Source of the DNA: Gemmatimonadota bacterium
Lineage (GTDB): Bacteria > Gemmatimonadota > Gemmatimonadetes > Gemmatimonadales > GWC2-71-9
Length of the DNA stretch: 43,901 nt
NCBI GenBank assembly: GCA_025361465.1
Contig: JANYAG010000048.1
Location: 1-43,901, forward strand
Direction of reading: 5' to 3'
The notes under the pieces are model-generated. The model searched no databases and was not told the DNA's origin. It saw only the letters and a list, made by a program, of their open reading frames with translations. Of the stretch, positions 1,071 through 18,547 are shown piece after piece (position 1 is the first letter of the stretch; each line of letters opens with the position of its first letter). A program made the position numbers and the translations under genes.

Positions 1071-1078
1071 CCGGGCGG

Positions 1079-1432
1079 TTAGGCTTCCTCGAGGTGGTCG
1101 ACCACCCACCGGCCATTGCTGCCGCACACCGAGCACGCCGCCTTCCCTGACCCATAGAGGATCATCTCGGCCTCGCTGTCGCACGACGGGCAGCGGGCCT
1201 TCACCGTCTGCAGGGTATCGAGCGGGATCCCGTTACGGATGATCCGGCCCACCATGGCGCTCGGTTCGGCGGCGCCGAGCGGGCACATGTTGCCGGTACA
1301 GTGGGAGCCGATCTCGAGACAGACCAGTTCGGCATCGTGAACCGAGGCATGCCCCTCGATGGTGGGGGCCTCGGTGATGAGCACACGCACCGGCCGGTCG
1401 CACGCCCCACAGAACAACTGTTGATTCTTCAT
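1079..1432 (-). CDS. Cys-rich putative metal-binding (Zn-ribbon or Fe-S) protein, 117 aa
   Basis: MKNQQLFCGACDRP...CLEIGSHCTGNMCP...CPSC...CSVC: three CxxC pairs plus three more Cys; G-rich RBS; same strand as apbE, 59 nt downstream. Confidence 0.75.
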   Translation of the reverse strand: MKNQQLFCGACDRPVRVLITEAPTIEGHASVHDAELVCLEIGSHCTGNMCPLGAAEPSAMVGRIIRNGIPLDTLQTVKARCPSCDSEAEMILYGSGKAACSVCGSNGRWVVDHLEEA

Positions 1433-1491
1433 GCTGCCCCCCACACGTCAAGAGTCGCGGTGGCGCCAACGGTGGCGCCCCCCGCATCGGG

Positions 1492-2484: not shown

Positions 2485-2623
2485 GGTGCTCTCCTTCCTT
2501 TTCGTGACGTTCACACGAGTTGGTGCACCCAGCGCAATGGCCGGTGCATCCCCGGTGAGGGAACATGCCGTGGAGGACAAACAACGCCGCACACAACCCG
2601 ATGGCGATGACGGTTTGGCTCAC
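2474..2623 (-). CDS. Small Cys-rich membrane-anchored peptide (49 aa), similar in layout to FeoB-associated Cys-rich peptides
   Basis: The GTG start overlaps the rnfA stop (GTGA) and the stop overlaps the apbE start. Sequence MSQTVIAIGLCAALFVLHGMFPHRGCTGHCAGCTNSCERHEKEGEHHVG is a TM helix plus Cx3Cx2Cx3C. Confidence 0.7.
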   Translation of the reverse strand: MSQTVIAIGLCAALFVLHGMFPHRGCTGHCAGCTNSCERHEKEGEHHVG

Positions 2624-3198
2624 TGCGCGCTCCCCATGCCGGCGAAGCCCATGAACGCCATGGACAGGCACGACGCCACGACCAGCACCAGTCCCATGCG
2701 GCGCGCAATGACCGGCACGTCGGCCACTTCGATCCGTTCGCGGATCGAGGCCATCAGGGAGAGTGCCAGGGTCAGTCCGAGCCCGGCGCCGATGGCGAAC
2801 ACCAGCGATTCGATCAGGTTGTACCGGCGCGAGGTCTGGAACAGGGCCAGGCCGAGAATGGCGCAGTTGGTCGTGATCAGCGGGAGATAGATCCCCAGCT
2901 GCCGGAAGAGCACCGGGAAATGCTTCTTGACCGCCATCTCCACGATCTGCACGCCCGAGGCGACCACCACGATGAAGGCGATGGTGCGCAGGAACGGCGT
3001 CTGCATCAGCACGTAGGTGTTGAGCACCCAGGCGCCAACGGCGGTGAGCAGCAGCACGAAGGTATTCGCGAGGCCGAGGCGCCAGGCCGTCTCGATCTTC
3101 GCGGTGACGCCGAAGAAGGAGCACAGCCCCAGGAACATCACCAGGGTGAAGTTGTTGACCAGCAGGGTCGAGACGAAGATCCACGCCAGGTTGCTCAT
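2620..3198 (-). CDS. rnfA: Rnf electron transport complex subunit A
   Basis: LVNNFTLVMFLGLCSF and LGIYLPLITTNCAILG motifs; ATGA overlap with rnfE. Confidence 0.93.
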   Translation of the reverse strand: MSNLAWIFVSTLLVNNFTLVMFLGLCSFFGVTAKIETAWRLGLANTFVLLLTAVGAWVLNTYVLMQTPFLRTIAFIVVVASGVQIVEMAVKKHFPVLFRQLGIYLPLITTNCAILGLALFQTSRRYNLIESLVFAIGAGLGLTLALSLMASIRERIEVADVPVIARRMGLVLVVASCLSMAFMGFAGMGSAQ

Positions 3199-3875
3199 GC
3201 GGCCCTCTCGGCGCGACGACGGCGGAACTCGATGATCCCCGCCAGGCCGAGGAGCGCGATTCCGAGGGTCAGGAAGCCGCCCGGAGGCATCACCATGAAG
3301 ACCCATGGCTCGAAGCGCGGCCCGAGAAGGTCGTAGCCCAGCAACGAACCGTTGCCGAGCAGTTCGCGGATGGCACTCAACAGGGACAGCGAGAAGGTGA
3401 AGCCCAATCCCATCCCGACCCCGTCGGCAACGGCGCGCACCGGCCCGACCTTGGCGGCAAACGCCTCCGCCCGGCCGAGCAGGAGGCAGTTGGCCACGAT
3501 CAGGGGCATGAACGGCCCCAGCGCCTTGCTGATGTCGGGGAAGGTGGCGGCGAGGATCATGTCGGCCAGCGTCACGAAGGTGGCGATGACCAGGATGTAG
3601 GTGGTGATCCGCACTTCATGGGCGATGTACTTGGCCACCAGCGAGACGATCAACCCGGAACCGACCAGCACGAAGAGCGTCGCCATGCCCATCGCGATGC
3701 CGTTGGCGAGCGTATTGGTGACCGCCATGGTGGGACACATCCCGAGAAACTGCACCATCACCGGATTTTCGCGCAGGATGCCGCGCCAGATATCGGCGAC
3801 GACCGTCGCGGGCGGCGGCGTCCCGGGAACGAACTCCGGCGTGCTGGTGGATTGGTCGGTTGTGATGGCGGTCAC
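3195..3875 (-). CDS. rnfE: Rnf electron transport complex subunit E
   Basis: ENPVMVQFLGMCPTMAVT, PLIVANCLLLGRAEAFA, IRELLGNG and PPGGF motifs; GTG start overlaps the rnfG stop. Confidence 0.93.
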   Translation of the reverse strand: MTAITTDQSTSTPEFVPGTPPPATVVADIWRGILRENPVMVQFLGMCPTMAVTNTLANGIAMGMATLFVLVGSGLIVSLVAKYIAHEVRITTYILVIATFVTLADMILAATFPDISKALGPFMPLIVANCLLLGRAEAFAAKVGPVRAVADGVGMGLGFTFSLSLLSAIRELLGNGSLLGYDLLGPRFEPWVFMVMPPGGFLTLGIALLGLAGIIEFRRRRAERAA

Positions 3876-4543
3876 TTGGCCCCTCCCCGGTCCCACGCGT
3901 CGAGCAGCGGGCGCCACTTGGCCACCGCATTGTTGATGATCCGGATCACGGCCCGCGAGGAGATGGTCGCCCCGGTGATGGTCTGGACCTCGCTGGGCGG
4001 CTTCCCTGCGCGGCCCTTGACCCCTTGGAGCGGCACGACGCGTCCGGTGAACTGGGCACCAAACAGGGAGTCCTTCTCGATCTTGTCGCCGAGCCCCGGC
4101 GTCTCCTTTTGGTCGAGCACCTTGTATCCGATCAACGCCCCGCTCGAGGGGTCGAACCCGATCATCAGCGTCAGCAGTTCCTGGAATCCCGGTTCGCTGG
4201 CCGTGATCGCGACACCCACCCGCTTGGCGGAGGCATCGAACCCGACGAACGCCTTGGGAAGGTCGATCGGATCTGCGCCGGACGGGACGGTGCGGGTGAG
4301 CGCGCCGTTCACGAGGTAGAGCGTGTCCCAGCGCGCGGGCGCCTTGAGCACCTCGCTCACGGCGGCGCGTTGCTGCTCGGCCGCGTGCTTCTGCACCGCG
4401 GGCAGGGTCACCTTGTAGACCGATACGACCAGCCAGCCCGACAGGGCGCCGGCAACGGCCAGGGTCAGCAGCAGGCGCCACGCCGGCGTGCTCTTGCCGG
4501 GCGTGAGCACGGCGGGAGTGCCGTGTTGATGCGTCGCGGTCAT
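3872..4543 (-). CDS. rnfG: Rnf electron transport complex subunit G (FMN-binding)
   Basis: N-terminal TM anchor, ETPGLGDKI, flavinylation motif QTITGATISSRAV. Confidence 0.92.
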   Translation of the reverse strand: MTATHQHGTPAVLTPGKSTPAWRLLLTLAVAGALSGWLVVSVYKVTLPAVQKHAAEQQRAAVSEVLKAPARWDTLYLVNGALTRTVPSGADPIDLPKAFVGFDASAKRVGVAITASEPGFQELLTLMIGFDPSSGALIGYKVLDQKETPGLGDKIEKDSLFGAQFTGRVVPLQGVKGRAGKPPSEVQTITGATISSRAVIRIINNAVAKWRPLLDAWDRGGAK

Positions 4544-4547
4544 GCCA

Positions 4548-5951
4548 TCACCTCTGGACCACCACCGGATGGGGTTGCGGTGCCATGAGAGTCACCGGAG
4601 TCGGCTCCACTGCGCCGCGCGGCCTGACGCCTGGGTGGAAGCCAAGCGTCAACATCAGGGCCGCGAAGCCGATGATGTAGGCCGCGGTGACAAACCACCC
4701 TTCCTTGAGCCACCTGGCCGCATTGCGCCCTTCGGGATACATGCTGACGAGTGCCACGCCGGCCGATGAGCCGAACCAGATCATCGAGCCGCCAAACCCG
4801 ACGGTGTAGGCCAGAACGCCCCAGTCATAGCCGCCTTGCTTGAGCGCCAGCGCCGTCAGCGGAATGTTGTCGAACACCGCCGAGACGAAGCCGAGCCCGA
4901 ACGCCGATTGCCAGCCCGCGGCCGGCAGGCGCTCGACCGGCATCATCGAGGCGCACAGCACCAGCGAGAGGAGGAAGGCCGCGCCCTTGAGCGCGGCGGG
5001 CATCAGGCTCCATTCCGGCTTGCGCAGCACGGTGGTCCCCAGGATGGCGACCCACACCGCGGCGCCCAGGAAGGGGAAGCGGTCCGACGATTCGGTGAAG
5101 CGGGTGTTGATCACCACATTGACGATGATCGCCGCCACCAGGATGGAAAGCACCACCGCGACCCGCACCCAGTCCACCCGCGCGTTGGCCGCATCGGCGC
5201 GGTGGATCGGGGAGTAGCTGTGCTGCTTCAGGGCGGCCGGAATGCCGCAGACGAACATCGCGATGAACGAACCGCCGTAGCCGTGGAGCACTTGCAGCGG
5301 GGGCACGCCGGCGATCCACATCATCGTGGTGGTGGTGTCGCCGACGACGCTGCCGGCGCCGCCGGCATTCGAGGCCGCCACGATCGCCGCCAGGTAGCCG
5401 ATATGGATCTTGCCGCGGAAGACGGTGTGCGCCACCGCACCACCGATCAGCGCCGCGGCGATGTTGTCGAGGAAGCTGGAAAGGATGCAGATCATCCACA
5501 GCAGTGCGAAGCCGCCGAGCCAGCCGTCGGGCAGGTACTTGGGCAGCGCGGCCGGCACCTCGCTGTTCTCGAAATGCCTGGCCAGCAGGGCGAAGCCGAC
5601 CAGCAGCAGCAGCAGGTTGGTCAGGATCACCCACTCACTCTGGAGATGCAGCCCGAAGCCCGTGAGGCCGGCACCGGTCCGGAATGGCGACGCGACGATC
5701 TTGTAGATCGCGATGCCGACCGCACCGATGATGGCGACCTTCATGGTCTGGTTGTGCAGGATCGCCACGCCCGCCAGCACCAGGCCGAACAGGATGAACT
5801 CGATCGGCACCGGGCCGAGCTGCGGACCCGAGAACCCGATCTCCGAGGCCGCGGCGAAGGCCCGGCCAGGCGATGCGAGGAGCAACAAGGCCGCGATACC
5901 GAGTGGGCGCATGGTCACCTTGCGAAACATCGAGGTTGAACTCGCACTCAC
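4548..5951 (-). CDS. Ion transporter (IT) superfamily permease, NhaD/ArsB/CitMHS-like
   Basis: About 12 hydrophobic helices; SSFLDNIAAAL, ASNAGGAGSVVGDTTTTMMW, SAVFDNIPLT and GGSMIWFGSSAGV motifs. GTG overlaps the rnfD stop; alternative ATGs at 5930 and 5912. Confidence 0.85.
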   Translation of the reverse strand: MSASSTSMFRKVTMRPLGIAALLLLASPGRAFAAASEIGFSGPQLGPVPIEFILFGLVLAGVAILHNQTMKVAIIGAVGIAIYKIVASPFRTGAGLTGFGLHLQSEWVILTNLLLLLVGFALLARHFENSEVPAALPKYLPDGWLGGFALLWMICILSSFLDNIAAALIGGAVAHTVFRGKIHIGYLAAIVAASNAGGAGSVVGDTTTTMMWIAGVPPLQVLHGYGGSFIAMFVCGIPAALKQHSYSPIHRADAANARVDWVRVAVVLSILVAAIIVNVVINTRFTESSDRFPFLGAAVWVAILGTTVLRKPEWSLMPAALKGAAFLLSLVLCASMMPVERLPAAGWQSAFGLGFVSAVFDNIPLTALALKQGGYDWGVLAYTVGFGGSMIWFGSSAGVALVSMYPEGRNAARWLKEGWFVTAAYIIGFAALMLTLGFHPGVRPRGAVEPTPVTLMAPQPHPVVVQR

Positions 5952-6952
5952 CGTGAGCTCCCCGGGTGGGTGCCGAAGACGCGCGGTTGGGTCGCCCGGT
6001 TGATGAAGGGCACCAGGGCATTCATGAACAGGATGGCGTACATCACGCCCTCGGGCAGCCCGCCCCAGATGCGAATCACCACCACCAGCGCACCGATCCC
6101 GCCCCCGAACACCCAGCGACCACGATTGGTGACCGGTGAGGTCACCATGTCAGTGGCCATATACACCGCGCCAAGCATCAGTCCGCCGGAAAAGAGCATG
6201 AACAGGGCGTCAGGCCGGCGCGGATCCACGAGGTGGATCACGGTACTGAGCACCGCCACCATCACCAGGATGCTGACCGGGATGCGCCAATTGAGGTACC
6301 GCTTCCACGCCAGGAAGGCACCGCAGGCGAGGATCAGCAAGGCCGCCGTCTCCCCCACCGATCCTCCGGTATTGCCGATGATCAGGTGCATCAGCCCGGT
6401 GGTCTTCCCCTCGAACTTCAGGAGACCGAGCGGGGTCGCCGAGGTGACGGCATCGAGCGACGGACGGGTGAACGGAAAGGCGAAGAGATCGCCCTTGAGT
6501 TGCAAGAACGGGCCACCAACCGTTGGCCAGGTGGTGATGGCGACCGGAAAGGCGGCCTGCAGGAAGGCCCGTCCGATCAGCGCGGGATTGAAGACATTCT
6601 GGCCCAGGCCACCCCAGACGACCTTCCCGAAACCGATCCCGAACGCGCCGCCAAGAAACGCCATCCAGAGCGGCATGCCCGAGGGCAGCGACAGGCCGAG
6701 GAGCAGGCCGGTGATGACCGCCGAGCCATCGGCCAGGGTACCCCCGCGGCCAATCGTGCGCTCCGTCAGCAACGCGCCGAGCGACGAGGCGGCGATCACC
6801 AGCAGGGCGCCAATGCCGAAGAACCACCCGGCGGCCACGATGATCGGGACCAGCGAGCCGACCACGTTCCACATGATCACCGGCGTGGAGTCCTGCGAGC
6901 GAACATGCGGTGAGGCGGTGACAACCAGCTTGGGCGTAATCGATTGGCTCAT
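5948..6952 (-). CDS. rnfD: Rnf electron transport complex subunit D
   Basis: ASPHVR, DGSAVITGLLL, GGLGQNVFNPAL, flavinylation site DAVTSATPL, GGSVGET, MATDMVTSP, PEGVMYAIL; ATGA overlap with rnfC. Confidence 0.94.
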   Translation of the reverse strand: MSQSITPKLVVTASPHVRSQDSTPVIMWNVVGSLVPIIVAAGWFFGIGALLVIAASSLGALLTERTIGRGGTLADGSAVITGLLLGLSLPSGMPLWMAFLGGAFGIGFGKVVWGGLGQNVFNPALIGRAFLQAAFPVAITTWPTVGGPFLQLKGDLFAFPFTRPSLDAVTSATPLGLLKFEGKTTGLMHLIIGNTGGSVGETAALLILACGAFLAWKRYLNWRIPVSILVMVAVLSTVIHLVDPRRPDALFMLFSGGLMLGAVYMATDMVTSPVTNRGRWVFGGGIGALVVVIRIWGGLPEGVMYAILFMNALVPFINRATQPRVFGTHPGSSR

Positions 6953-8277
6953 GTGGCACCAGCCTTGACGCGCCGCAGCGCGGCCTTGCTCGCCTGGAAG
7001 AGCTGGGCAAGCGGAATGTTCGACGGGCAGACATAGGCGCACGAACCGCAGAGCATGCAATCGGCCAGGTGCTCGTCAACCATGTCCTTGAAGCGGTGCA
7101 CCCGGGCGAAGTCACCCAGGAGCGACGGATTGAGGAACACCGGACAGGCCTCGAGGCAACGCCCACAGTGGATGCAGGGATAGACCTTGTCGAGCCGGGT
7201 CTCGTGTTTCTCGAGCACCACCACTCCGGTGGTGCCCTTGACGACCGGCGCGTCCAGATTGGCCTGCGCCTGCCCCATCATCGGGCCGCCGATGATCACC
7301 TCGGCCGCATCGGGGGTCACGCCATCACAGAAGGCCAGCAGGTCGCGGAGCTTGGTGCCGACCGGGACGATCAGGTTGGCGGGACGGCGAAGGCCGTGCC
7401 CCGAGACGGTGACGATCCGCTCGATCAGCGGCAACCCGGTCTCGAACACCTCGGCGATGGCCGCCACCGAGCCGACGTTCTGCACCACCACCCCGACGCT
7501 CACCGGCAACTTGCCCGAGGGAACTTCGATCCCGGTCACTGCCTGGATCAGCATCTTCTCAGCACCCTGCGGGTACTTCACCGTCAGCGGCAGGATGGTG
7601 ATGTCGAGATCGGTCGGCAACGCCTGTTGCAGCGCCGCGATCGCGTCAGGCTTGTTCCGTTCGACGCCCACGACGCACTTGGGGACCCCCATGGATTGCA
7701 TCATGACCCGGATCCCGAACAGCACCCGGTCGGGGTACTCTGCCATGGTGCGATGGTCCGACGTCAGGTAGGGCTCGCACTCGGCCCCGTTGATGATCAG
7801 CGTGTGCACCACGAAGTCCGCCGGTGGAGCCAGCTTCACATGGGTCGGGAACGCCGCGCCCCCCAGCCCGACGACGCCGGCGTCCTGCACCGCCTGCACC
7901 ACCTGGTCGACCGTGAGTCCCTCCCAGTGCGGCACCATCCGCGGCCGGGTCATCTGGGGCGCGTAGCGGTCCACCTTGATCCGCACCGCCATCGCCATCG
8001 TCCCGTCGGGATGCGGCCACCAGCCGATGTCCGTCACCGTGCCGGACGCCGAGGCGTGGATCGGGACCGAGATCCAGCCATCGGCCAGACCGACCGGATC
8101 GCCGCGTTCGACATGGTCCCCCACCTTGACGCACAGCGTGGCCGGGTTGCCGGCGTGCTGCCGCAGCGGCAGGACAATCTCGTCGGGATACGGCATCCGT
8201 CGGATCGGGAGTTGACTGGTCAACTCCTTCTCTTCACGAGGATGCACACCGTGACGGAACCCTGAGGAGAGTCTCAT
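6949..8277 (-). CDS. rnfC: Rnf electron transport complex subunit C
   Basis: GVVGLGGAAFPTHVKL, INGAECEPYLTSD, KYPQGAEK, GGPMMG, and two CxxCxxCxxxCP motifs. Confidence 0.96.
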   Translation of the reverse strand: MRLSSGFRHGVHPREEKELTSQLPIRRMPYPDEIVLPLRQHAGNPATLCVKVGDHVERGDPVGLADGWISVPIHASASGTVTDIGWWPHPDGTMAMAVRIKVDRYAPQMTRPRMVPHWEGLTVDQVVQAVQDAGVVGLGGAAFPTHVKLAPPADFVVHTLIINGAECEPYLTSDHRTMAEYPDRVLFGIRVMMQSMGVPKCVVGVERNKPDAIAALQQALPTDLDITILPLTVKYPQGAEKMLIQAVTGIEVPSGKLPVSVGVVVQNVGSVAAIAEVFETGLPLIERIVTVSGHGLRRPANLIVPVGTKLRDLLAFCDGVTPDAAEVIIGGPMMGQAQANLDAPVVKGTTGVVVLEKHETRLDKVYPCIHCGRCLEACPVFLNPSLLGDFARVHRFKDMVDEHLADCMLCGSCAYVCPSNIPLAQLFQASKAALRRVKAGAT

Positions 8278-8284
8278 CCGATGA

Positions 8285-11200
8285 TCAATTGAACTTCGCC
8301 GCGCGTGCGATCCACTTCTCGAGGTCCTTCTCCTTGGAATTCAGCGGGGTGCCGGGATGGATGATCGCCACCGGGCAGCGCTCCGCGGCCGTGACCAACT
8401 GGGCGAACGTGCCAGCCTTGGGGTCCTTGATGACCGCCTGCTTGGTGGCGTTGTACACGAACATCTTCTTGTTGGCGTTGATGCATTCGTTGCACGTGGT
8501 GCAGCGCGCCGAATCGATCCACGGCGCAATGACCATGGCGTCGTCGTCTTCGGCCGTGGGCGCCGCGGCCACTGCGGCGACCGGGGCCTTGGCCGGCGCT
8601 GCCGAGGCCGGGACGTTCGTCACTGGTGCGGCGACCGGGGCGGCCCCGGCGGGCCGCGGCCGTGTCAACGCCGGCAACTCGGCCAGGAACTCCGCCACCG
8701 CCGCCGAGCCGCCAGCCTTGGTGAGCAGCGCCGACGCCAGCCGGCGCGCCATCTGCGCCGGATAGGTCGCGCGGAGGTCGGCCAGTTTCGCTTCATAGTC
8801 GGCCCGCAGCGAGGCCGTCCGGGTTTCGAATTCCGCCTCGACCGAGCTCGCCACCTGGTCGCGAACGCTCGGGGCGATCTCCAACCCGGCGAGTTGGCGC
8901 AGCTGTGACCAGAATTGCTGCCGCTCTTCCGCCAGGTGCACGATCTCGCTCGACACGCTGAGCCGGCGCAGCGTGCGATCCTTCGCGAGCGCCAGGATGT
9001 AGGGGGCATGACCATCGCGCTCCGCGGGGGCAAGCGCGAGATACTCGTGGAACGGCATCATCGCGTCGTCCCACGTGGTCGACGGCACCTCGGCGAAGTG
9101 TTGCTTGAAGCGGCCCTCGGTGGCGGCCCAATCGGCGATGGTCACCGGCAGTTCGAGGGTTTGCTCCGCCCCCGCGCCGTCGAGGTACTTCAACGTGTAG
9201 GTGGGCCAGGCGTCCTCGACCGAGGGATTGCCCTCGAGCGACAACTGGTCGGCATAGGTCGGCCCGGCCTCGGGGTCGAACGTGAGGAACGGGAACGCCC
9301 GGCTTTCCAGCGCCAGGCGAGCCGAGTGCTGCGACGAGTCGTCGGCCAGCCCGTGCTCGACCGGGCAGGGTGTGTACACATTGATCAGCACCGGGCGGCG
9401 CTTGTGCAGGCCCCTCAGCACGCCGCCAATCAGGTGCGACGCCGAGGCTTGCGACGTCTGGTGGACATAGACGCCGCGATGCGCGATGGCGATCAACGCC
9501 AGTTCCTTGCGGACTTCGGTCTTGCCATGCTGCGCCTTGCCGAAGCCGGACATGTCGGCCACCTGTCCCGTGAAGCCCGAGGTGCAGGCCTGGCCACCAG
9601 TGTTGGAGTACACCTGCGTGTCGAGCACCACGACGCGGATCGGCTTGCCGCTCGCCAGCAGGCGCGAGAGGTTCTGGAAGCCGATGTCGAGCATCGCGCC
9701 GTCGCCGCCCATCGCGACGATCGGCGGGCAGAGGGCGAATTCGTCGTCGGTGAACTGCTGCCAGGTGAGCAGCGCCAGGGCCGGTTCATGGAGCGCCGCG
9801 TCGTAGCCGCCGTCGGTCAGCAGTTCGGCGCGACGGATGAGGGCGAAGTTGTCCGCCATCTTGCGCATGTGGGCCTCGAACAGCCCGATCGCGACCGACG
9901 TCGAATCCTGGAAGAGATGGCTCACCCACGGGAACGGATACGGATTGTAGGGATAGGTGCCGCCCCAGACCGAAGAGCAGCCGGTGCTGTTGGCCATCCC
10001 CATCGGGGCACGCCCGGTGCCGCTCGGCCCCGCTTCGTAGCGCCACTTGAGGTCCTTCAGCGCGGCGATGGTGCGGTTGAGCAGCATCAGCTGCTCCTGC
10101 TTGGCCGCATCGATCGGCACGGCCACCGAGCCACCGCCCTGGGCGGCCGCATCGAGGTCGGCGCCCGAGGCGATCAGCTCACGCGCTTCCCGGTCAAGGG
10201 CAGCGAGCAGTTCGTCGAGATGGGCGACGTACCGCTCGATGCGCGGCTGCATCGACGCGAAGATCGAGGAGACGATCAGGTGGACCGCGGTCTTCTCGCC
10301 ACAGCCCATGCAGGCGCCGTCGCCGCCAACCATGGAACGGTAGGTGGCCTTCTTGAGCAGCAGCGAGGACAGCACGCCGATGCCCTCGTCCACATCGCTC
10401 ACGTTGACGAAGCGATTGTCGGTGTCGGGCAGCCGCTGCCAGATGGCCCAATTGCGGCGCAGCTGCTCGAGCGAGGCGTCATCCTGCCGGACCGACACGA
10501 GCGCGCCGTCGGGACAGACCTCGACGCAGAGATTGCACCCCTTGCAGGCCTCGGGATTGACCGTGATCGAGAGCAGGCCGCCGGAGCCCTTCTCCTTCCC
10601 TTCGATCGCGTCAAAGAACGGCCGGGTCCGCGCCACCGGGAACTCGGCCAGCCGCGGCTGCACCACCGCGAACTCCTGGTCGGTCGCCGCGCGACGATCG
10701 GCGTCCCACTTCAGCTTGTCCGCGACGGTCGCATAGCCCTTGGCGAACGCCTCGGTCACCGCCAGCGACGGCTCCTTGGCCAGGAGACGCTGGACTTCCT
10801 TGCCCCAGGGCTTGGCGACCGGCCGCAGGCGATCGACCGTGTGACTGGTGGCCGCCGCTCCGATCGCCGCAGTGATGACCTCCTCGGGGCTGTTGACCAG
10901 CCCGGGGATGGCGGCATCGGGACACTGGGTCCAGCACTGCGCACAGCCGGTGCAGTTGGCGGCCACGAACGCCGGGATCTCCATCCGCACGCCGCTCATG
11001 TCGCGCACCGCGCCGGTGGCGGCCGGGATCGCGCTGATCGCCGCAAACGGATCGGCGATGCCGTCCTGCCCCATCACGCAGAGCGAACACACCTGCTCCC
11101 AGAACCGGCCCGGATTGCCGATGCCCTGCTGGGCGTCGATCACGTCGAGCGAGCCGGGAATGTGCGGGACGGTGCCGAGCGCCATGCTCGCCTCGACCGC

Positions 11201-13321
11201 CGTGGCATCCACCACCAGCACCTGGTCAAACCCGCGGCGAATGACGCGGAGGTTGTCTTCCACCACCGCCTCGCCGCGATGGCCGAACTTCTTCTTGAAC
11301 TGGGCACGGATGCCCTCGAACAGGCGGGCTTCGGTCGTCTCCTCGCGCTGCAGCAGCGGCGAGGTGTTGAAGAAGGCCCCGAGGAACGCCGCACCCTGCA
11401 TCCGGTAGCGCAACTCGACGTCGGACGCTTCTTCCCGCGCGATGGCGAAGGCGTCGAGCACATAGACCCGGATCTTCCGCTCGCGGATGGTCGCGCGCGC
11501 CTGGGCCGGAAGGGTGAGCCAGAACTCGGCCGGGCTCAGGTCGCTCTGGATCACGAAGACGCCACCCGCGGCGAGGCCGGCGAGCGGATCGCTGTGCCGG
11601 AAGACATTCGGGTCGGGCGAGAGGACGACATCGACGTGCCGGAGTTCGCAGTTGAGGCGCACCGGCTCGTGCGACAGCACGGCATAGAACGTCGTCGGCT
11701 GACCCTTCTTTTCCGAGCCGTACTTGGGATTGGCCTTGATCTGCATCCCGAAGAGCTCGAACGCCGTCATCGCGAGGTTCTTGCCCATCGTGATGGCGCC
11801 CCAGCCACCGACGGAGTGGATCCGCACCGCGGTCGAGCCTTCGGGCAGGAGGTTCAGGTCGCCGGCCGACGTGAGCGACAGCTCCCCGATCTCGGGATAG
11901 CTGTCGAGCATCCGTTCCTGCCAGATCTGCAACTTCGGGAGCTTGGTCTCGCGGCGGATGAAGTCGATGCCCAGGTAGAACTGGCGCTTCTGGGCGCCCT
12001 TGGGCAGCATGTTGTCGACGGCCGCGACGATATCGCCGGGCTGCAGGTCGCGGCTGCCGAGGCCGAAACAGCCGGAATGGAAGTTGGGCACCTGGCCTGC
12101 GCCGAGCGCGGCGAGCCCCGGGAATGCGACGGCGCCGCCGGTCGCGACGCGGCCGTTCTCGACCGCCTGCGAGATGGCCGAGCGGATTTCGCGCAGCAGC
12201 GGGGGATCAACAGCCAGCGGCTGGTCGGTACGCTCGAGGACGACGACAGCCTTCTTGCCGGCGAGGGCATGACTGATCAGGTCGGCCGGGAACGGCCGGA
12301 ACATCGTCAGGTTGAGGACACCAATTGCCAGGCCACGCGTGGCGCGCAGGTGATCGACCACCGCCTCGGCATTGGCGACGACCGAGCCCTGTCCGACGAT
12401 CACGTATTCCGCATCGTCGAGACGGTAGCCGGAGACCCGGGCGTACCGGCGACCGGTGAGGGCGGCGAACTCGGCGAACGCCTGGTCGGTCAGGCTGGTG
12501 ATGTGATCGAAATAGAAGGGCCGCTGGGCGGCGACACCTTGGGCGTAGCTGTCCTGGTTCTGCACCACGCCGAGCATCGCCGGGTAATCGAAGTCGAACA
12601 TCTCCGGAATCCGGCGGCGCATCTCCCCGAACACCAGGCGCTGTGACGGCGTCGGCGAGGGGATCATGTCGGCGGGATCGCCGAGATACGTCTTGATGAG
12701 TTCGCGCTCCGGGAGGAGGAGCGACTCGATCACATGGGAGGTGAGGAAGCCGTCCTGGGCGCAGATGCCCGGGTTGAGCGACAGCTCGGCGATCCGGTGG
12801 GCGACCAGGTTGAGGTCGGCCGCTTCCTGGACATCCTTGGCGAACAGCTGGAAGAAGCCGGTGTCGTCGACCGCGTGATAGTCATCGTGACCGGCGTGGA
12901 CATTGAGGGCGTGCTTGGTCATCGCGCGGGCGGCGATGTTGAGCACATACGTCAGCCGCTTGCCGACGGCCGCGTAGAGCGACTCGTGCATGTAGGCGAT
13001 GCCCTGCCCGCTCGAGAAGTTGGTCGCGCGCAGGCCGGACATCGCCATCCCGGCGGTGACCGCGGCGGCGGCATGCTCGCCTTCGGGTTCGAAGAAGAGG
13101 AGGCGCCGGCCGTTGACGTTCAGCTTCCCTTCGGCGACCGCCTGGGCCCACCCTTCACCCATCTGGGTGGAGGGAGTGATCGGATAGGCGCCGGCCGCCT
13201 CGCCGGCGGCAATCTCCATGGCCACGACCGCGGCGCTGCCGTCGAGCGCCTCCAGCGTGCCGGGATAGCGCGGCGTTTCGGGCGCCTTGGAACTGCGCGG
13301 ACTGCGAAGAATCGACGTCAT
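8285..13321 (-). CDS. Large fused pyruvate/2-oxoacid:ferredoxin oxidoreductase (NifJ/PFOR-like, 1678 aa) with an extra C-terminal ferredoxin domain
   Basis: AYPITPS, NPKYGSEKKG, CTGCAQCWTQCP, CKGCNLCVEVCP, GACMGCGE, ANSTGCSSVWGG, GGDG...DTQVYSNTGGQ, and C-terminal CTTCNEC...RCP. ATG13321 overlaps the rnfB stop (ATGA). Confidence 0.92.
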   Translation of the reverse strand: MTSILRSPRSSKAPETPRYPGTLEALDGSAAVVAMEIAAGEAAGAYPITPSTQMGEGWAQAVAEGKLNVNGRRLLFFEPEGEHAAAAVTAGMAMSGLRATNFSSGQGIAYMHESLYAAVGKRLTYVLNIAARAMTKHALNVHAGHDDYHAVDDTGFFQLFAKDVQEAADLNLVAHRIAELSLNPGICAQDGFLTSHVIESLLLPERELIKTYLGDPADMIPSPTPSQRLVFGEMRRRIPEMFDFDYPAMLGVVQNQDSYAQGVAAQRPFYFDHITSLTDQAFAEFAALTGRRYARVSGYRLDDAEYVIVGQGSVVANAEAVVDHLRATRGLAIGVLNLTMFRPFPADLISHALAGKKAVVVLERTDQPLAVDPPLLREIRSAISQAVENGRVATGGAVAFPGLAALGAGQVPNFHSGCFGLGSRDLQPGDIVAAVDNMLPKGAQKRQFYLGIDFIRRETKLPKLQIWQERMLDSYPEIGELSLTSAGDLNLLPEGSTAVRIHSVGGWGAITMGKNLAMTAFELFGMQIKANPKYGSEKKGQPTTFYAVLSHEPVRLNCELRHVDVVLSPDPNVFRHSDPLAGLAAGGVFVIQSDLSPAEFWLTLPAQARATIRERKIRVYVLDAFAIAREEASDVELRYRMQGAAFLGAFFNTSPLLQREETTEARLFEGIRAQFKKKFGHRGEAVVEDNLRVIRRGFDQVLVVDATAVEASMALGTVPHIPGSLDVIDAQQGIGNPGRFWEQVCSLCVMGQDGIADPFAAISAIPAATGAVRDMSGVRMEIPAFVAANCTGCAQCWTQCPDAAIPGLVNSPEEVITAAIGAAATSHTVDRLRPVAKPWGKEVQRLLAKEPSLAVTEAFAKGYATVADKLKWDADRRAATDQEFAVVQPRLAEFPVARTRPFFDAIEGKEKGSGGLLSITVNPEACKGCNLCVEVCPDGALVSVRQDDASLEQLRRNWAIWQRLPDTDNRFVNVSDVDEGIGVLSSLLLKKATYRSMVGGDGACMGCGEKTAVHLIVSSIFASMQPRIERYVAHLDELLAALDREARELIASGADLDAAAQGGGSVAVPIDAAKQEQLMLLNRTIAALKDLKWRYEAGPSGTGRAPMGMANSTGCSSVWGGTYPYNPYPFPWVSHLFQDSTSVAIGLFEAHMRKMADNFALIRRAELLTDGGYDAALHEPALALLTWQQFTDDEFALCPPIVAMGGDGAMLDIGFQNLSRLLASGKPIRVVVLDTQVYSNTGGQACTSGFTGQVADMSGFGKAQHGKTEVRKELALIAIAHRGVYVHQTSQASASHLIGGVLRGLHKRRPVLINVYTPCPVEHGLADDSSQHSARLALESRAFPFLTFDPEAGPTYADQLSLEGNPSVEDAWPTYTLKYLDGAGAEQTLELPVTIADWAATEGRFKQHFAEVPSTTWDDAMMPFHEYLALAPAERDGHAPYILALAKDRTLRRLSVSSEIVHLAEERQQFWSQLRQLAGLEIAPSVRDQVASSVEAEFETRTASLRADYEAKLADLRATYPAQMARRLASALLTKAGGSAAVAEFLAELPALTRPRPAGAAPVAAPVTNVPASAAPAKAPVAAVAAAPTAEDDDAMVIAPWIDSARCTTCNECINANKKMFVYNATKQAVIKDPKAGTFAQLVTAAERCPVAIIHPGTPLNSKEKDLEKWIARAAKFN

Positions 13322-14157
13322 GCTTCCGTGCTCCCAGCCAAAGACGGCATGCGGACGAATTGCGCTCCGTCCAGCCATACGATCGCGCCGGTCGGACAGC
13401 GGGTCACTGCCTGCCGATCGGCCTGTGCGTTGAGTTCATAGTTCACTGTCGCCACACCACTGCTGACACTGATCAGTCCCGGCGCGGCATCCTGCACGCA
13501 CTTGCCGCAGGTCGTGCACGCCACCTGACACTGGTCCAGCACCTCGTCGCCGGCGAGGAGGTTCTTGCACTGCACCAGGAGCCGTTGTTCCACGGGCTGG
13601 AGCACGAACAGTCCCTTCGGGCAGGCCTCGACGCAGTCACCACACGCAGTGCAGGTGACCGGGTCGACCACCGGGAGCCCGGTGTCGCTCATCGTGATCG
13701 CCTTGAAGGCGCACACCCGAGCGCAATCGGCGAGGGAGAGGCAGCCCCAGGCGCAGCCCTTCCCGCCTCCGGCCACGGCCGCGGCCGCGGCACACGTGGG
13801 GAGCCCGCGGTATTCGGCCTGCGACACCGCGACGTCGGTTCCGCCGGCACAGAGCAGTCGCGCGACGCGCCGCTGTGCGGTCCCCGCCGCGACGCCGAGG
13901 AAACCGGCAATCGCCTTGTGCACATCATCGCTGCCCACCGAACACTTCGTCGGCGCGATGATCCCCTCAACCGCCTGCTCGGCAAACGCCCGGCAGCCCG
14001 GCAGCCCGCACGCGCCACAGTTGGCGTTGGGCAGCATCGAGGCGACCGCGTCGATCCGGGGATCTTCCCAGACCCACAGCTTCCGGTTGGCCAGCGCGAT
14101 GAAGACCGCGAAGACCAGCCCCACTCCACCAACAATCAGGATCGCGAGCAGTGTCAT
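13318..14157 (-). CDS. rnfB: Rnf electron transport complex subunit B (polyferredoxin)
   Basis: N-terminal TM, EDPRID, LPNANCGACGLPGC, CAWGCLSLADCARVC, CTACGDCVEACP, CTTCGKC...CPTGAI. Confidence 0.92.
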   Translation of the reverse strand: MTLLAILIVGGVGLVFAVFIALANRKLWVWEDPRIDAVASMLPNANCGACGLPGCRAFAEQAVEGIIAPTKCSVGSDDVHKAIAGFLGVAAGTAQRRVARLLCAGGTDVAVSQAEYRGLPTCAAAAAVAGGGKGCAWGCLSLADCARVCAFKAITMSDTGLPVVDPVTCTACGDCVEACPKGLFVLQPVEQRLLVQCKNLLAGDEVLDQCQVACTTCGKCVQDAAPGLISVSSGVATVNYELNAQADRQAVTRCPTGAIVWLDGAQFVRMPSLAGSTEA

Positions 14158-14179
14158 CGTGACGATTTCCGCATCGGTA

Positions 14180-15181
14180 TCAGCTCTCCCCCAGCCCGGA
14201 TGCACCAAGCAGCCACGCCGCGATCTTCTCCACCGCATCGTCGCCGCTGCCTGCGCGCGGAGCCGATCCGGCACTCGCCGGCGCGGCGATCGGTGCGCGA
14301 GCCAGATCTTCCAGCATGGTTCGGTCTTCCGCCATCTGCCAGGCGCTCATGCCACTGATGGCACGCTTGGGCACCTCGCCCAGCGTCCCCACCGTCAACC
14401 GCTGCCACGGCTCGCGCCCGGCGGCCGGGTCGTGGCAGAAGACCGCGGCGCCGGCCGGCATCACCGCCCCGATCGCCGGCCCGTCAGACAGGGCGACCCG
14501 ATCGAGTCCGCTGCCGTCGATGGTCTGCAACACCAGCGTACCGGGGGTGATGCAGCGCGCGAGTGGCGCCGGCGCCGACGCGCCCCGCACCACCAGCACG
14601 ATCTTCTCGCGACCGTCGGCAAAATCACTCAGGGCCCCGACGTGCAGGTCGGCCCCGTCGAGCGAGACGATCAGGGGCGGGGCGTACCGCCGCTCGGTCT
14701 TGCCCCAGGCACGGAAGTCCAGCGGATCGAGCAACCGATCATGCTCGCTGGCCTGGTAGCGTCCCCCGCGCACCACATCGGTCAGGATCACCGCACCAAA
14801 TGCCCGCCCGAATTCCGCCAGCGCGTCGTTGACCGTGGCACCCAGTCGGCCGCCCGTGGGGAGAGCGATCAGGAAGGCATCCGTGCCGCGCTCGGCGATC
14901 GCGCGCAGCGTGGCGCTGGCACGAGTGAGCGCGGCCACCGCCGCGGGGGACACCGGCGGCACCGCGGGGAAGAGCGTGGCGAACCGCGCCGCGTCCACCC
15001 GGCCGGCTGCAAATTGTCCCAGTGCAATCCCGGCGCGACCGGCCTGCTGACTGCTGTCGGCGGCCTGCTCCGCGAGGAACGCTTCGGCGAGGGCGAGGGC
15101 GCGTTGAATGATCGCGCGAAATTCGGCGATCGGCCGCTCCATGGCCGCCGTGGCCAGGGCAAAGCGCGCGTCAGACGGCAT
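14180..15181 (-). CDS. Hypothetical protein, apparent degenerate paralogue of the PFOR TPP-binding domain
   Basis: The 333-aa ORF fills the korB-rnfB gap with an 11-nt overlap to korB. It shares colinear blocks with the PFOR in this window (see findings). Confidence 0.8.
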   Translation of the reverse strand: MPSDARFALATAAMERPIAEFRAIIQRALALAEAFLAEQAADSSQQAGRAGIALGQFAAGRVDAARFATLFPAVPPVSPAAVAALTRASATLRAIAERGTDAFLIALPTGGRLGATVNDALAEFGRAFGAVILTDVVRGGRYQASEHDRLLDPLDFRAWGKTERRYAPPLIVSLDGADLHVGALSDFADGREKIVLVVRGASAPAPLARCITPGTLVLQTIDGSGLDRVALSDGPAIGAVMPAGAAVFCHDPAAGREPWQRLTVGTLGEVPKRAISGMSAWQMAEDRTMLEDLARAPIAAPASAGSAPRAGSGDDAVEKIAAWLLGASGLGES

Positions 15182-16127
15182 AGCGATCCAGCTCCGCTTC
15201 CATCAGGGTGATCCGCTCGTCGGCGGTGCGCGGCGCCACGCGCAGGAGGTCTTCGTAGCGCGGCCGCGACGGATCGCGGAACAGCACACCGAGGTGGATG
15301 TGGTCGGTGCTCTCGGCGATTCGGCGCGCCGCGTCGAGATCATGCGGATCGTGCGCGACCTGGGTCTTGTAGATCTTCTCGAGATCAGGCACCACCACGC
15401 CGTCGTCGTGGGTCAGCAACGCAATGCGGGCGGGGTCCTGCACCGCCGCCTGGTAGACGGCCGCGGAGTACACCGGACACCGCTGCAGGATGCGCACGAA
15501 GCTCAGGCCGCGATGGTGATAGGCCTCTCGCAGCGTGGCATAGAGGTGCGCCGGGGCCCACTCGGCGGTCTGGGCCACGAACGAGGCGTTGGTCACGCCC
15601 AGCGACACCGTGAGCGGATTGAGCGACGGAAGCCGACTCCCGTTCGGTTGCGTGTTGCTGGGAAATCCCTGCGGGGTGGTCGGTGAGGTCTGCTTCTTCG
15701 TCAGCGCGTAGATGCCGTTGTCGAGGAGGAGGACCGTCATGTTGATGTTGTAGCGCAGGGCGTGGATCCAGTGCGCCGCACCGATCGACGTGCAGTCGCC
15801 ATCGCCCATGACAACAAAGACCGTGAGGTCGGGACGGCTCAGCTTGACGCCGGTCGCCACCGGCAGCGCGCGGCCATGGATGCCGTGGAAGCCGTAGGTC
15901 TTGAGATAATGCGGAAACCGGCTTGAGCAGCCGATGCCCGAGACGAACACCGTCTGTTCCGGGGTGAGCTGCTCGGCGGTCAGCAGCCGCTGCACCGCGG
16001 TCAGGACCGAATGATCGCCGCAACCGGGGCACCAGCGCGCGCGCGCGCCCTCGTAGTCACTCAGCTCGTACTCGGCATCGTGCTCGTCCGGCTGCAGGAC
16101 CGGCAGGAGCCCGCAGGCGATTGTCAT
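15171..16127 (-). CDS. korB: 2-oxoacid:ferredoxin oxidoreductase beta subunit
   Basis: WCPGCGD, VSGIGCSSRFP, HGIHGRALP, MGDGD, DNGIYALTKKQTSPTT, QRCP; ATGA overlap with the alpha subunit. Substrate not determinable. Confidence 0.9.
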   Translation of the reverse strand: MTIACGLLPVLQPDEHDAEYELSDYEGARARWCPGCGDHSVLTAVQRLLTAEQLTPEQTVFVSGIGCSSRFPHYLKTYGFHGIHGRALPVATGVKLSRPDLTVFVVMGDGDCTSIGAAHWIHALRYNINMTVLLLDNGIYALTKKQTSPTTPQGFPSNTQPNGSRLPSLNPLTVSLGVTNASFVAQTAEWAPAHLYATLREAYHHRGLSFVRILQRCPVYSAAVYQAAVQDPARIALLTHDDGVVVPDLEKIYKTQVAHDPHDLDAARRIAESTDHIHLGVLFRDPSRPRYEDLLRVAPRTADERITLMEAELDRYAV

Positions 16128-18016
16128 GCTGCACCTCCCCGCGGCATCCGCTCGCGAATGGCATCCACAATGGATCCGGGACGCAACGGCTCGCCCGGGA
16201 CCCGGGTCCAGCAATCGACGTCCACGAGCGTGGTCGCGCGCAACAGCCAGCTCAGCTGCCCGCGGCGACGGTTCTCCTCCGTGATGAACGGGTCACCCAG
16301 TTCATCGCTGTAGTTGATCTCCACCGTGCAGACCTTCTTGAACTTCGCGAAGATCGCCTTCAGGCCCGGCTCAAGGGGCGAGAGGAAGCGCAGGTGCACC
16401 GATGAAACCCGCATCCCCTCGCGCTTCGCCCGATCCACCGCTTCCTCGATCGCGCCCTTGGTGCTCCCCCAGCCGACCAGCAGCAGGTCGCCCTGGTCGT
16501 CCCCGTACACCGGCGGTGGCGTCAGCATGTTCTGCAGCACGGCCAGCTTGCGGCTGCGCATCGCCGAGCTGTGCTGATGCACGCCCGAGCTGTAGGCCAC
16601 CTTGCTGCGGTTGTCGTGTGAGAGACCGGTGACGGTGTAGGCCCCGCCCGGCTGCCCAGGAATGATCCGCGGGGAAAGCCCGGTCTCCTCGTTCCAGTCG
16701 TAGGCGTGCTGTCCGGCGGCGACCGGCGGCAGGTCGAGCGGAGCCGCCTGCCAGCGGGCATCCAGCTTCGGCCGGGGAAACGGCGTCACACCGGTGGCGA
16801 GGTTGGCGTCGCTGAGCACCATCACCACGGTGCGGAATGCCTCGGCGATCCGGCGCGCGGTGATCATGACATGGAAGCACTCTTCGATCGTGGCAGGCGC
16901 CAGGACCACGTGCGGGGAGTCGCCGGGACTGGCGTACATCGCCGCGAGCAGGTCCGACTGCTCCACCTTGGTCGGCAGCCCCGTGCTGGGACCGCCGCGC
17001 TGCACATCGATGAGCACCAGCGGCATCTCGGTCATCACGGCCAGGCCGAGGAACTCCGTCTTGAGCGCAAGCCCCGGCCCCGACGTCACGGTGAGCGCCA
17101 CCTTGCCGGCGTAGGATGCGCCGATCGCCACGCCCACGGCGGCGATCTCATCCTCCGCCTGGTGCACCACGCCGCCGAAGCGTTCGAACACTTCGCTCAG
17201 GTAGTGCGACACCGAGGTCGCCGGGGTGATCGGATACATCGCGCAGAGCTCCATCCCGGCGGCGACCGCCCCGAGACCCAGCGCCTCGTTGCCGTTCATC
17301 ACGATCAGTGGCTCGGTGACCGGTGCTGGCGGCACCTCGATGCGGAAGTCGATGTGCGCTTCAGCCCAGGCGTAACCGAGCATGAGCAGGGCGACGTTCT
17401 GTTCGTAGACCTGTTCACTCTTCTTGCGGAAGGTCTCGGCGATCTGCTCCTTGATGCGCGCCATGTCGCTGGTGTAAATGCACGCCAGCATTCCGAGCGC
17501 GAACATGTTCTTCCCCTTGCGGGGATTGTCGACGAGGGTGAGGCACTCCACCTCCATCGGCACCGGGATGATGCGGTAGTGCTGGCCCGAGAGCTCGGCC
17601 ATCCCGGCTTCCCAGGCGGCGCGAATGTCCGCGTCCTCGTCGCTGGCCCACTTGTCCTCGACCAGCAGCACGGCGTCAGGCGCCAATGCCTCCAACCGAT
17701 GCCGGGCCAGCAAGACCTGCTCGTTGAAGGCGACGACGAGGTTGGTCGAATCGCCCCAATTGGTCACCGGTCGTTCGCCGATGCGAATCCGGAAGCCGCT
17801 GGCGCCTTCGGGAATCCGCGGCGGCGGCTGGATCTCGGCCGGAATGATCTCAACGGTCCAGACGCCGTTACCCATCTTGGCGCAGACCGCGCCGAAGATC
17901 TGGCCGCACTTCTGGGCGCCTTCCCCGGAGTCGGAGACGATCTCGAGGGTGTGCTCGGGCAGTCGCCGGACGCGCGGCTTGGTCGGGACAATGGTGGCGG
18001 ACGTGGTGGCAGTCAC
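16124..18016 (-). CDS. korA: 2-oxoacid:ferredoxin oxidoreductase alpha subunit (gamma-alpha fusion)
   Basis: SDSGEGAQ, KNMFALG, MNGNEALGLG, YPITPAT, QAEDEIAA, TSGPGLALKTE, VQRGGPSTGLPTKVEQSDL; GAGGA RBS before GTG18016. Confidence 0.92.
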   Translation of the reverse strand: MTATTSATIVPTKPRVRRLPEHTLEIVSDSGEGAQKCGQIFGAVCAKMGNGVWTVEIIPAEIQPPPRIPEGASGFRIRIGERPVTNWGDSTNLVVAFNEQVLLARHRLEALAPDAVLLVEDKWASDEDADIRAAWEAGMAELSGQHYRIIPVPMEVECLTLVDNPRKGKNMFALGMLACIYTSDMARIKEQIAETFRKKSEQVYEQNVALLMLGYAWAEAHIDFRIEVPPAPVTEPLIVMNGNEALGLGAVAAGMELCAMYPITPATSVSHYLSEVFERFGGVVHQAEDEIAAVGVAIGASYAGKVALTVTSGPGLALKTEFLGLAVMTEMPLVLIDVQRGGPSTGLPTKVEQSDLLAAMYASPGDSPHVVLAPATIEECFHVMITARRIAEAFRTVVMVLSDANLATGVTPFPRPKLDARWQAAPLDLPPVAAGQHAYDWNEETGLSPRIIPGQPGGAYTVTGLSHDNRSKVAYSSGVHQHSSAMRSRKLAVLQNMLTPPPVYGDDQGDLLLVGWGSTKGAIEEAVDRAKREGMRVSSVHLRFLSPLEPGLKAIFAKFKKVCTVEINYSDELGDPFITEENRRRGQLSWLLRATTLVDVDCWTRVPGEPLRPGSIVDAIRERMPRGGAA

Positions 18017-18029
18017 GGGGTGAGCATCC

Positions 18030-18332
18030 TCACTCGAGGAGGCGCGAGCTGGATGGCTCGGCCAGGCTCTTCGGGGGTTCGACAACGGGAACGATGGAGG
18101 GCACAGGCTGTTCGGTCGCCTGCATCTCGCGCAGATGCGCCAGTTCACTCAGGAGGTCCTCGTAGACCGCCGGATCAAGCAGCACCGCAGCACTGCGACC
18201 ATGCTGAGTGAGGATCACCGTGCACTTGGTGCTGCGGATCTGTTCGAGGAAAGCTGAGGCGTTCGCCCGGAATTCAGTGACCGGGCGGACATCCTGCGCG
18301 GGGCGGAGGCGGGACATGTTACGGTGCGTCAT
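18030..18332 (-). CDS. Phd/YefM-family antitoxin-like DNA-binding protein with no adjacent toxin
   Basis: DVRPVTEFRANASAFLEQIRSTKCTVILTQHGRSAAVLLDPAVYE matches the Phd N-terminal pattern; alternative start ATG18317. Confidence 0.85.
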   Translation of the reverse strand: MTHRNMSRLRPAQDVRPVTEFRANASAFLEQIRSTKCTVILTQHGRSAAVLLDPAVYEDLLSELAHLREMQATEQPVPSIVPVVEPPKSLAEPSSSRLLE

Positions 18333-18334
18333 GA

Positions 18335-18416
18335 CGTACGCTCACGAGTACACGTAAACGGACAGTGTACGATCCTATCCCGCCAAATGTGAAGAAAAGA
18401 TGAAGTGATTATGAAG
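18335..18416 (-). promoter_or_regulatory. Putative promoter/operator region of the kor-por-rnf operon
   Basis: Minus-strand TTCACA(18393-18388)-N18-TACACT(18369-18364); GTAC cores at 18336, 18348 and 18367; TGAAG at 18390, 18401 and 18412. Confidence 0.55.
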
Positions 18417-18515
18417 GAGTTTTCAGGCATCCGGGGGCAGGAAAATCGGGGTCTTTTGGGGTCGCCGGCGGCCGAAATCAGGGCGTCCGTCCCCAAGTCA
18501 AGAACCCTGCCGGAA

Positions 18516-18545
18516 TTGACCGTCGGGACACGCGGCGGATAGGTT
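18516..18545 (+). promoter_or_regulatory. Putative sigma70 promoter of tig
   Basis: TTGACC(18516-18521)-N18-TAGGTT(18540-18545) immediately before the start codons. Confidence 0.5.
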
Positions 18546-18547
18546 TC

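Follow-up and report, generated by a model that had tools for sequence, protein, structure and literature searches.

A toxin-less Phd/YefM-type protein at the head of a kor-por-rnf operon in Gemmatimonadales, a probable antitoxin descendant recruited as autorepressor

In the YefM-YoeB system of Escherichia coli and in Axe-Txe, the antitoxin carries a Phd/YefM N-terminal domain, its gene leads the operon in tight coupling with the gene that follows, and two palindromes with GTAC-containing cores are found 12 bp apart centre to centre, the upstream one being the longer (PMC1802561, PMC7730913). For YefM the operator is described as a long and a short palindrome with TGTACA cores at that same distance (PMC1802561; also PMC7730913, PMC4803016), palindrome pairs of this type are reported from many genomes at no more than 80 bp from the start codon (PMC1802561), and antitoxin turnover is attributed to Lon or Clp proteases (PMC4803016). 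Here, these features are compared with those of a phd-like gene at 18030..18332, minus strand, in a stretch of 43,901 nucleotides from a Gemmatimonadota bacterium (GenBank assembly GCA_025361465.1, contig JANYAG010000048.1), analysed over the whole contig and hereafter called the window. Unlike its counterparts in YefM-YoeB and Axe-Txe, this gene and those of its relatives that share its position (hereafter kor-linked) have no toxin, encode a variable Pro-rich tail, and are followed by korA and ~16 kb of energy-metabolism genes. The comparison suggests, with a probability of roughly 0.6, that the protein is a toxin-less descendant of a Phd/YefM-ParE module, fixed in a Gemmatimonadales lineage and recruited as autorepressor of the kor-por-rnf operon.

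The fold of MqsA, another antitoxin to be considered, differs from that of a Phd/YefM-type protein. The likeness lies in an antitoxin DNA-binding domain that controls non-toxin genes, repression being relieved by Lon degradation (PMC4803016); the difference is that MqsA still has its toxin partner MqsR and controls rpoS and csgD in trans, whereas the kor-linked phd is toxin-less and would act in cis on its own operon. Solo antitoxin genes are described as very common and as long suspected recruits to ordinary regulation, and their products have been proposed to regulate diverse operons (Makarova et al. 2009, PMC2701414). As given in that source the proposal is statistical and comes without specific cases, while for the kor-linked phd a defined clade, an operon, a putative operator and an apparent intermediate form can be named. 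A literature search covering titles and the beginnings of abstracts retrieved no Phd/YefM protein heading a metabolic, oxidoreductase or Rnf operon.

A Phd/YefM protein without toxin or toxin-type tail

The phd-like gene, first cistron of its operon, is an intact open reading frame (ORF) of 100 codons plus stop with an ATG start, and its translation agrees with the one quoted in a preliminary description of this DNA. Its product matches Pfam PF02604 PhdYeFM_antitox over residues 14-74 (18111..18293, minus strand) with E=1.8e-12 and 47.3 bits (cut-off 29.8) and NCBIfam TIGR01552 phd_fam with 29.1 bits (cut-off 20.8), so that its N-terminal domain places it in the Phd/YefM family above the curated cut-offs. 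An alignment of 55 relatives contains 27 invariant columns, all of them within residues 11-60, and a variable C-terminus; in the window protein this end is a Pro/Ser-rich tail (residues 69-100; 18033..18128, minus strand) with 8 Pro and 6 Ser among its 32 residues, which stands in place of the 30-amino-acid (aa) tail that goes with ParE in relatives. Searching solved structures with the window protein as a single sequence returned no relative at E<=0.01, and the family profile gave weak matches to the N-terminal domains of 9g12 chain C (E=0.0019), named antitoxin (RelB) by its depositors, and of 3g5o chain A (E=0.051), deposited as an uncharacterised protein (Mycobacterium tuberculosis Rv2865), both of which we take to be antitoxins of toxin-antitoxin pairs. 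Plasmid relatives in PLSDB comprise 10 records with ~40% identity over residues 5-74, annotated as Phd/YefM antitoxins; the region of one of them lists no toxin, which is uninformative given that the PLSDB gene table is incomplete. PADLOC, which covers defence systems, gave no match for the phd-like protein, for a 333-aa protein encoded farther down the operon (orf333), or for one ParE representative.

The TGA stop of phd (18030-18032) and the GTG start of korA (18016) are separated by a 13-nt junction (18017..18029, minus strand), and a Shine-Dalgarno-like GAGGA motif at 18027-18031 overlaps the stop; on the 5' side of phd there is a 215-nt spacer and then tig-clpP-clpX on the opposite strand. 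A ParE profile found no match in the six-frame translation of the whole window, Pfam searches on the 130 window ORFs of 75-170 aa gave only three matches (OsmC, the phd-like protein and a GTPase) and no toxin family, and the five ORFs that overlap or flank phd had no Pfam match. A hidden toxin was rejected on these searches, the ParE profile having been run in six frames on the window and on all the loci described below. The preliminary description is thus borne out in several respects: it had noted an intact Phd-type N-terminus, a Pro/Ser-rich tail (unlike the fixed tail of toxin-linked relatives, as can now be said), a phd stop that overlaps the ribosome-binding site of korA, with a gap of 13 nt, and no toxin ORF on either side, to which the searches add that none is found in the 43.9-kb window. 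Because it lacks two of the features that define type II toxin-antitoxin modules, namely the adjacent cognate toxin gene (korA follows 13 nt after phd and a 215-nt spacer precedes it) and the conserved C-terminal toxin-binding segment (replaced by Pro-rich tails of 7-36 aa), the phd-like system should not be filed as such a module.

Relatives of the window protein number 919 at E<=0.001 in the protein collection, and those named within the best 120 come from Gemmatimonadota metagenome-assembled genomes (MAGs). A scan of species-representative genomes anchored on Phd yielded 207 relatives, from which 79 loci were kept (80 rows with the window). Phd-like genes do precede korA in related clusters, a comparison that the preliminary description had proposed: phd lies directly before korA in 20 of the 79 loci, from 19 assemblies, and in 17 of these 20 the order korA-korB-orf333-rnfB-POR is found within the 6-kb flank (in L006 it stops after orf333, in L015 at the contig edge, and in L011 korA is truncated). 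L019, with a protein identical to that of L015 and a contig that ends 78 nt past the phd stop, is a 21st kor-linked locus, so that 21 loci from 20 assemblies and, with the window, 22 rows form this class. Across these loci KorA shares 81-86% identity with that of the window, and all 21 labels read Gemmatimonadota/Gemmatimonadales except that of L049 (Bacillota). In the latter the phd-kor-rnf block is Gemmatimonadales-like, the Phd clusters with that of L055, which comes from a Gemmatimonadales MAG, and KorA is 86% identical to that of the window, so that a mis-binned contig is the probable explanation.

The remaining 58 loci, from Gemmatimonadaceae, Thermoleophilia, Coriobacteriia and others, form a toxin-linked class, in which a ParE gene of nearly full length begins at the stop of the antitoxin gene in 50 cases, partial ParE remnants are left in four (L050, L057, L059, L065) and none is found in four (L030, L069, L076, L077). 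The ParE profile matched none of the 22 kor-linked rows, and Pfam ParE_toxin was matched by all six intact representatives examined from toxin-linked loci; the toxin partner in relatives, a point that the preliminary description had left open, is ParE. These Phd-ParE modules of Gemmatimonadota and Actinomycetota resemble the kor-linked genes in family (the window protein is 56% identical to that of L021 over 95 aa), in their paired GTAC sites and in a 4-nt stop/start overlap with the next gene, and differ from them in the fixed 30-aa C-terminus, the ParE gene (50/58) and a strong GGAG-type ribosome-binding site. Within the toxin-linked class, L059 (6279-8647) has a split ParE, with profile positions 1-33 at the phd stop and 62-98 ~2.2 kb beyond, which suggests an insertion. 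Further ParE-like genes within 6 kb were seen in L003, L004, L023, L025, L026, L029, L037, L038, L057 and L067, which look like toxin-antitoxin-rich islands.

In an unrooted maximum-likelihood tree built on 66 columns of the N-terminal domain and 80 rows, the 22 kor-linked rows make up one side of a single branch (support 92/65, unstarred), so that one state change accounts for the class. This branch is nested in a starred set (96/85) of 55 rows, mostly labelled Gemmatimonadota and including toxin-linked members. Sister to all other kor-linked rows is L028 (5863-6276), apparently an intermediate form: its 5' region, with an AGGAG ribosome-binding site, is of the toxin type and its N-terminus is short, the tail has only 7 residues, and korA overlaps the phd stop. 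Considering L028 and that the toxin-linked state is found in several phyla, the direction of change would have been from toxin-linked to kor-linked.

The pairwise ratio of non-synonymous to synonymous substitution rates (dN/dS) in the N-terminal domain is 0.14 for kor-linked (219/231 pairs) and 0.17 for toxin-linked genes (825/1653 pairs), and the ORF is intact in 22/22 kor-linked rows. The tails that follow the LLRE/LLRD motif set the classes apart: in toxin-linked proteins they measure exactly 30 aa in 58/58 with a median Pro fraction of 0, while in kor-linked ones they range from 7 to 36 aa with a median Pro fraction of 0.19 and amount to 21 distinct sequences per 22. An origin of these tails by frameshift of the toxin-type tail was rejected, as three-frame translations (66 sequences) gave no significant match to a profile of toxin-type tails, the best kor-linked tail being that of L002 (E=0.047) and the window tail reaching E=4.6. 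Among the best 120 protein clusters, 93 carry non-toxin-type tails and 27 toxin-type ones; in nature, therefore, the kor-linked type is a diverse one.

Paired GTAC cores, promoter and junction

Two GTAC cores spaced 12 bp centre to centre lie at 18336..18351 and end 3 nt ahead of the phd start codon, constituting the sole exact GTAC-N8-GTAC of the window. The core at 18336-18339 (CGTACG, 18335-18340) resembles the short palindrome of YefM operators, and that at 18348-18351, set in an imperfect 16-bp palindrome (18342-18357), the long one. When the upstream DNA of each locus was lined up on a conserved codon, GTAC-N8-GTAC was present in 21/21 kor-linked sequences with at least 80 nt of upstream DNA, at one fixed position in 20 of them, as well as in 38/57 toxin-linked upstream regions (53/57 for the relaxed RTAC-N8-RTAY), against a background of 71 among 5112 tiles of 150 nt of all the DNA analysed, true sites counted in. 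The upstream core of kor-linked loci is often embedded in an extended palindrome, which reaches 16 bp, TCACATGTACATGTGA, in L005 and L007, and the downstream one is short, GCGTACGC. Within the kor-linked alignment the cores are invariant, and the mean frequency of the top base is 0.79 in the operator block versus 0.51-0.64 further upstream.

Paired palindromes with (T)GTAC(A) cores, 12 bp apart and less than ~80 bp from the start codon, are the arrangement of a YefM-type promoter region, and by analogy the phd-like protein would work most like a YefM-type autorepressor. Two differences from YefM-YoeB and Axe-Txe are nonetheless to be considered: the kor-linked sites adjoin the start codon rather than lying over the -10 element or in the spacer, and their cores are often CGTACG or nGTACn, not always TGTACA.

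A sigma-70-like promoter candidate was found in the window at 18364..18393 (minus strand), with TTCACA (18393..18388) as -35 and TACACT (18369..18364) as -10; it places the cores at ~+7 to +22 relative to the predicted transcription start. The candidate -10 is overlapped by a third GTAC (18367-18370), which makes up an inverted repeat together with 18348-18353. Upstream of the paired cores, TTCAY is directly repeated three times with a period of 11 nt (18389..18415, minus strand), a pattern that occurs once in the window, where 0.04 are expected by chance. Four kor-linked loci have an exact copy of it and most others a recognisable one. The third repeat coincides with the predicted -35, and the pattern could belong to the promoter or serve a second regulator as its site. 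A riboswitch or structured leader was rejected for this region, Rfam having returned one chance-level match (E=0.94) on 17900-18700 and folding of the leader RNA being no better than that of shuffled sequence (z=0.02). The GC content falls to 0.57 at 18150-18600, which covers the 5' part of phd and the intergenic DNA, versus 0.63-0.70 in the flanks.

At the other end of the gene, the phd-korA junction (n=21 including the window) is either a 4-nt overlap, GTGA or ATGA, in 10/21 sequences or a gap of 11-13 nt in 11/21.

Recruitment as autorepressor and its alternatives

The events that these data suggest would have begun with a Phd-ParE module reduced to its antitoxin by loss of the ParE gene and of the fixed 30-aa tail linked to it. 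The Phd/YefM N-terminal domain is kept under purifying selection and the paired GTAC cores are kept just ahead of the start codon, while korA occupies the place that parE has in relatives, overlapping the stop by 4 nt or following 11-13 nt later. A dimer of the protein is predicted to bind both GTAC sites and to repress the only evident promoter of the operon, which would put ~16.8 kb under negative autoregulation. By analogy with antitoxins, the likeliest route for the relief of repression would be Lon/Clp turnover through the presumably disordered tail.

Several observations weigh against such a recruitment or bound its scope. The kor-linked counts rest on Phd-anchored sampling and so give no share of kor-por-rnf clusters without phd, the support for a single-origin branch is moderate (92/65) in a tree that is unrooted, and in L011 (6297-6700), which is either a rearrangement or an assembly chimera, phd is intact but the similarity to korA breaks off after ~45 codons. 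Promoter scans of L005 and L002 gave no sigma-70-like match, and since the candidate of the window has no counterpart at the same place in these two loci it is regarded as tentative. In addition, the cores abut the start codon in the kor-linked class but flank a -10-like hexamer (TATCAT) in the toxin-linked L039; considering this different placement and the lack of a predicted promoter in L005 and L002, any promoter geometry for the kor-linked class is tentative. DNA binding, dimerisation and repression by the phd-like protein are, moreover, predictions made from sequence. Finally, E. coli YefM alone is reported to repress ~5.5-fold, and without its toxin to need a concentration more than 100-200-fold higher than that of the YefM-YoeB complex for operator binding (PMC1802561). 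Because YefM alone binds poorly and represses only to that extent, a toxin-less phd-like protein may be a weak, mild homeostatic repressor unless this is compensated.

Among other explanations, it is improbable that the protein still serves as an antitoxin in trans, directed against a ParE-type toxin encoded elsewhere (anti-addiction or immunity) and placed before korA because this is a convenient site of expression. The intact and conserved N-terminal domain would suit such a role, as would the basic/Leu motif that ends some tails and was aligned by MAFFT with the toxin-type C-terminus, the marginal match of the L002 tail to the toxin-type profile (E=0.047), and the discussion of solo antitoxins acting in trans in PMC2701414. 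The tails nevertheless speak against it, being 7-36 aa long and Pro-rich versus a fixed 30 aa in 58/58 toxin-linked proteins, with none significant against the toxin-type profile in any frame. The window is without toxin, and 0/20 kor-linked assemblies give a toxin-type locus among the 79 kept, a weak point given that 80 of 207 were sampled and that the MAGs are incomplete. It is very unlikely, and clearly disfavoured, that phd is the functionless remnant of a decayed module left by chance upstream of korA, the outcome that the preliminary description had named as refuting its view. Decayed copies do exist in the toxin-linked class, with partial ParE in 4/58 and none in 4/58, but all 22 kor-linked ORFs are intact with a dN/dS of 0.14 indicative of purifying selection, their rows fall on one branch, and position and junction are kept in 20 loci from 19 assemblies that are not near-identical strains, as judged from KorA identities of 81-86% to the window. 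Besides, 93 of the best 120 protein clusters share the non-toxin tail type, and the GTAC cores are invariant in 21/21 while the flanking non-coding DNA varies.

Also unlikely is a non-transcriptional role, in which the protein, its ratio to KorA fixed by translational coupling, would be a partner, assembly factor or protease adaptor for a product of the operon. In favour of it, the phd stop is tightly coupled to the korA start in 21/21 sequences, the tail might serve as a short linear motif for interaction (some subclades have C-terminal motifs of their own, such as AERRRFGxLT), and the antitoxin SocA is described as a ClpXP adaptor (PMC4803016). However, the coupling is the same as the 4-nt overlap of the ancestral phd-parE and may therefore simply be inherited, the tail is not conserved across the kor-linked class, and the paired GTAC cores are conserved without a coding reason, which points to DNA binding. 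Recruitment as autorepressor thus remains the preferred explanation, and the proposal of the preliminary description that a domesticated antitoxin regulates the kor-por-rnf operon is strengthened by the comparative evidence (20 loci, one branch, purifying selection, GTAC pairs in 21/21), although not in the part drawn from synteny with ClpXP.

An extension of the autorepressor explanation, tentative and rather unlikely, is that the Pro-rich tail is a new input module that replaces the toxin as co-repressor or degron. DNA affinity or half-life of the protein would then be set by a product of the operon (KorAB or orf333) or by a protease, in a toxin-free form of conditional cooperativity. Were this the case, a toxin-free switch would tune ferredoxin-linked energy metabolism, and L028 would be a preserved intermediate of domestication.

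The presumed target is a large operon for low-potential electron transfer, combining 2-oxoacid oxidoreductases and Rnf in a poorly studied phylum. With a defined clade, target and operator, toxin-linked sisters and L028 at hand, the step from selfish module to housekeeping regulator becomes directly testable. The locus also carries a warning for annotation, as a type II antitoxin label in Gemmatimonadota may often stand for the regulator of an operon rather than for a toxin-antitoxin pair.

The operon and its upstream neighbours

Downstream of phd and on the same strand, korA (16124..18016, minus strand) encodes the alpha subunit of a 2-oxoacid:acceptor oxidoreductase that scores 538 bits against TIGR03710 (cut-off 483), and Pfam and NCBIfam domains describe the rest of the operon from korB through apbE (1492..16214, minus strand). 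The order after phd is korA, korB, the 333-aa ORF, an rnfB-like gene, a gene for a fused 1697-aa protein resembling pyruvate:ferredoxin oxidoreductase (POR), rnfC and rnfD, followed by a 467-aa membrane ORF, rnfG (3872-4543), rnfE, rnfA and apbE. KorB is under the cut-off of its subfamily (237 vs 262 bits); a KorA-type alpha subunit above cut-off together with RnfC, D, G, E, A, B-like and ApbE domains identifies the whole as a kor/Rnf operon. On the minus strand within 600-18600, sigma-70-like matches are limited to the phd promoter candidate (18393..18364) and to 1451..1424, past apbE, leaving no such site from 18364 to 1451. Terminator-like matches in the same interval are fewer than the chance level. 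One long operon fits, since no internal sigma-70-like site is found on the strand and terminator-like matches are below chance.

Located between korB and rnfB, orf333 (14180-15181, minus strand) matches nothing in Pfam, NCBIfam or PADLOC and yet is kept in 18/20 kor-linked loci at 58-76% identity. Between rnfB and rnfC (8285-13378, minus strand), the 1697-aa POR-like protein unites alpha, gamma, ferredoxin and beta-type domains with an extra C-terminal 4Fe-4S domain in a single chain, and scores far under the standard PFOR equivalog cut-off (401 vs 911 bits). The 467-aa ORF between rnfD and rnfG (4548-5951, minus strand) shows a weak match, far below cut-off, to NhaD-like Na+/H+ antiporters.

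The genes on the 5' side of phd vary among kor-linked loci, with a GNAT acetyltransferase in 7, a beta-eliminating lyase in ~6 and a multicopper oxidase in others, and phd therefore marks where the conserved block invariably begins on its 5' side. An upstream flank of at least 1.9 kb is available for 18 kor-linked loci, and tig, clpP and clpX are missing from all 18 flanks, so that their divergent arrangement is peculiar to the window. The preliminary description had argued for proteolytic derepression from this arrangement, an argument left without support from synteny (0/18 loci). Proteolysis of the phd-like protein is conceivable from what is generally known of antitoxins, and the gene neighbourhood adds nothing to it. 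As a curiosity, a second and independent adjacency of the phd family to tig-clpPX occurs among the 80 sequences: in L065 (6001-10047), from a MAG labelled Slackia, tig-clpP-clpX directly follows, on the same strand, a toxin-type phd whose ParE is decayed and covers only profile positions 2-61.

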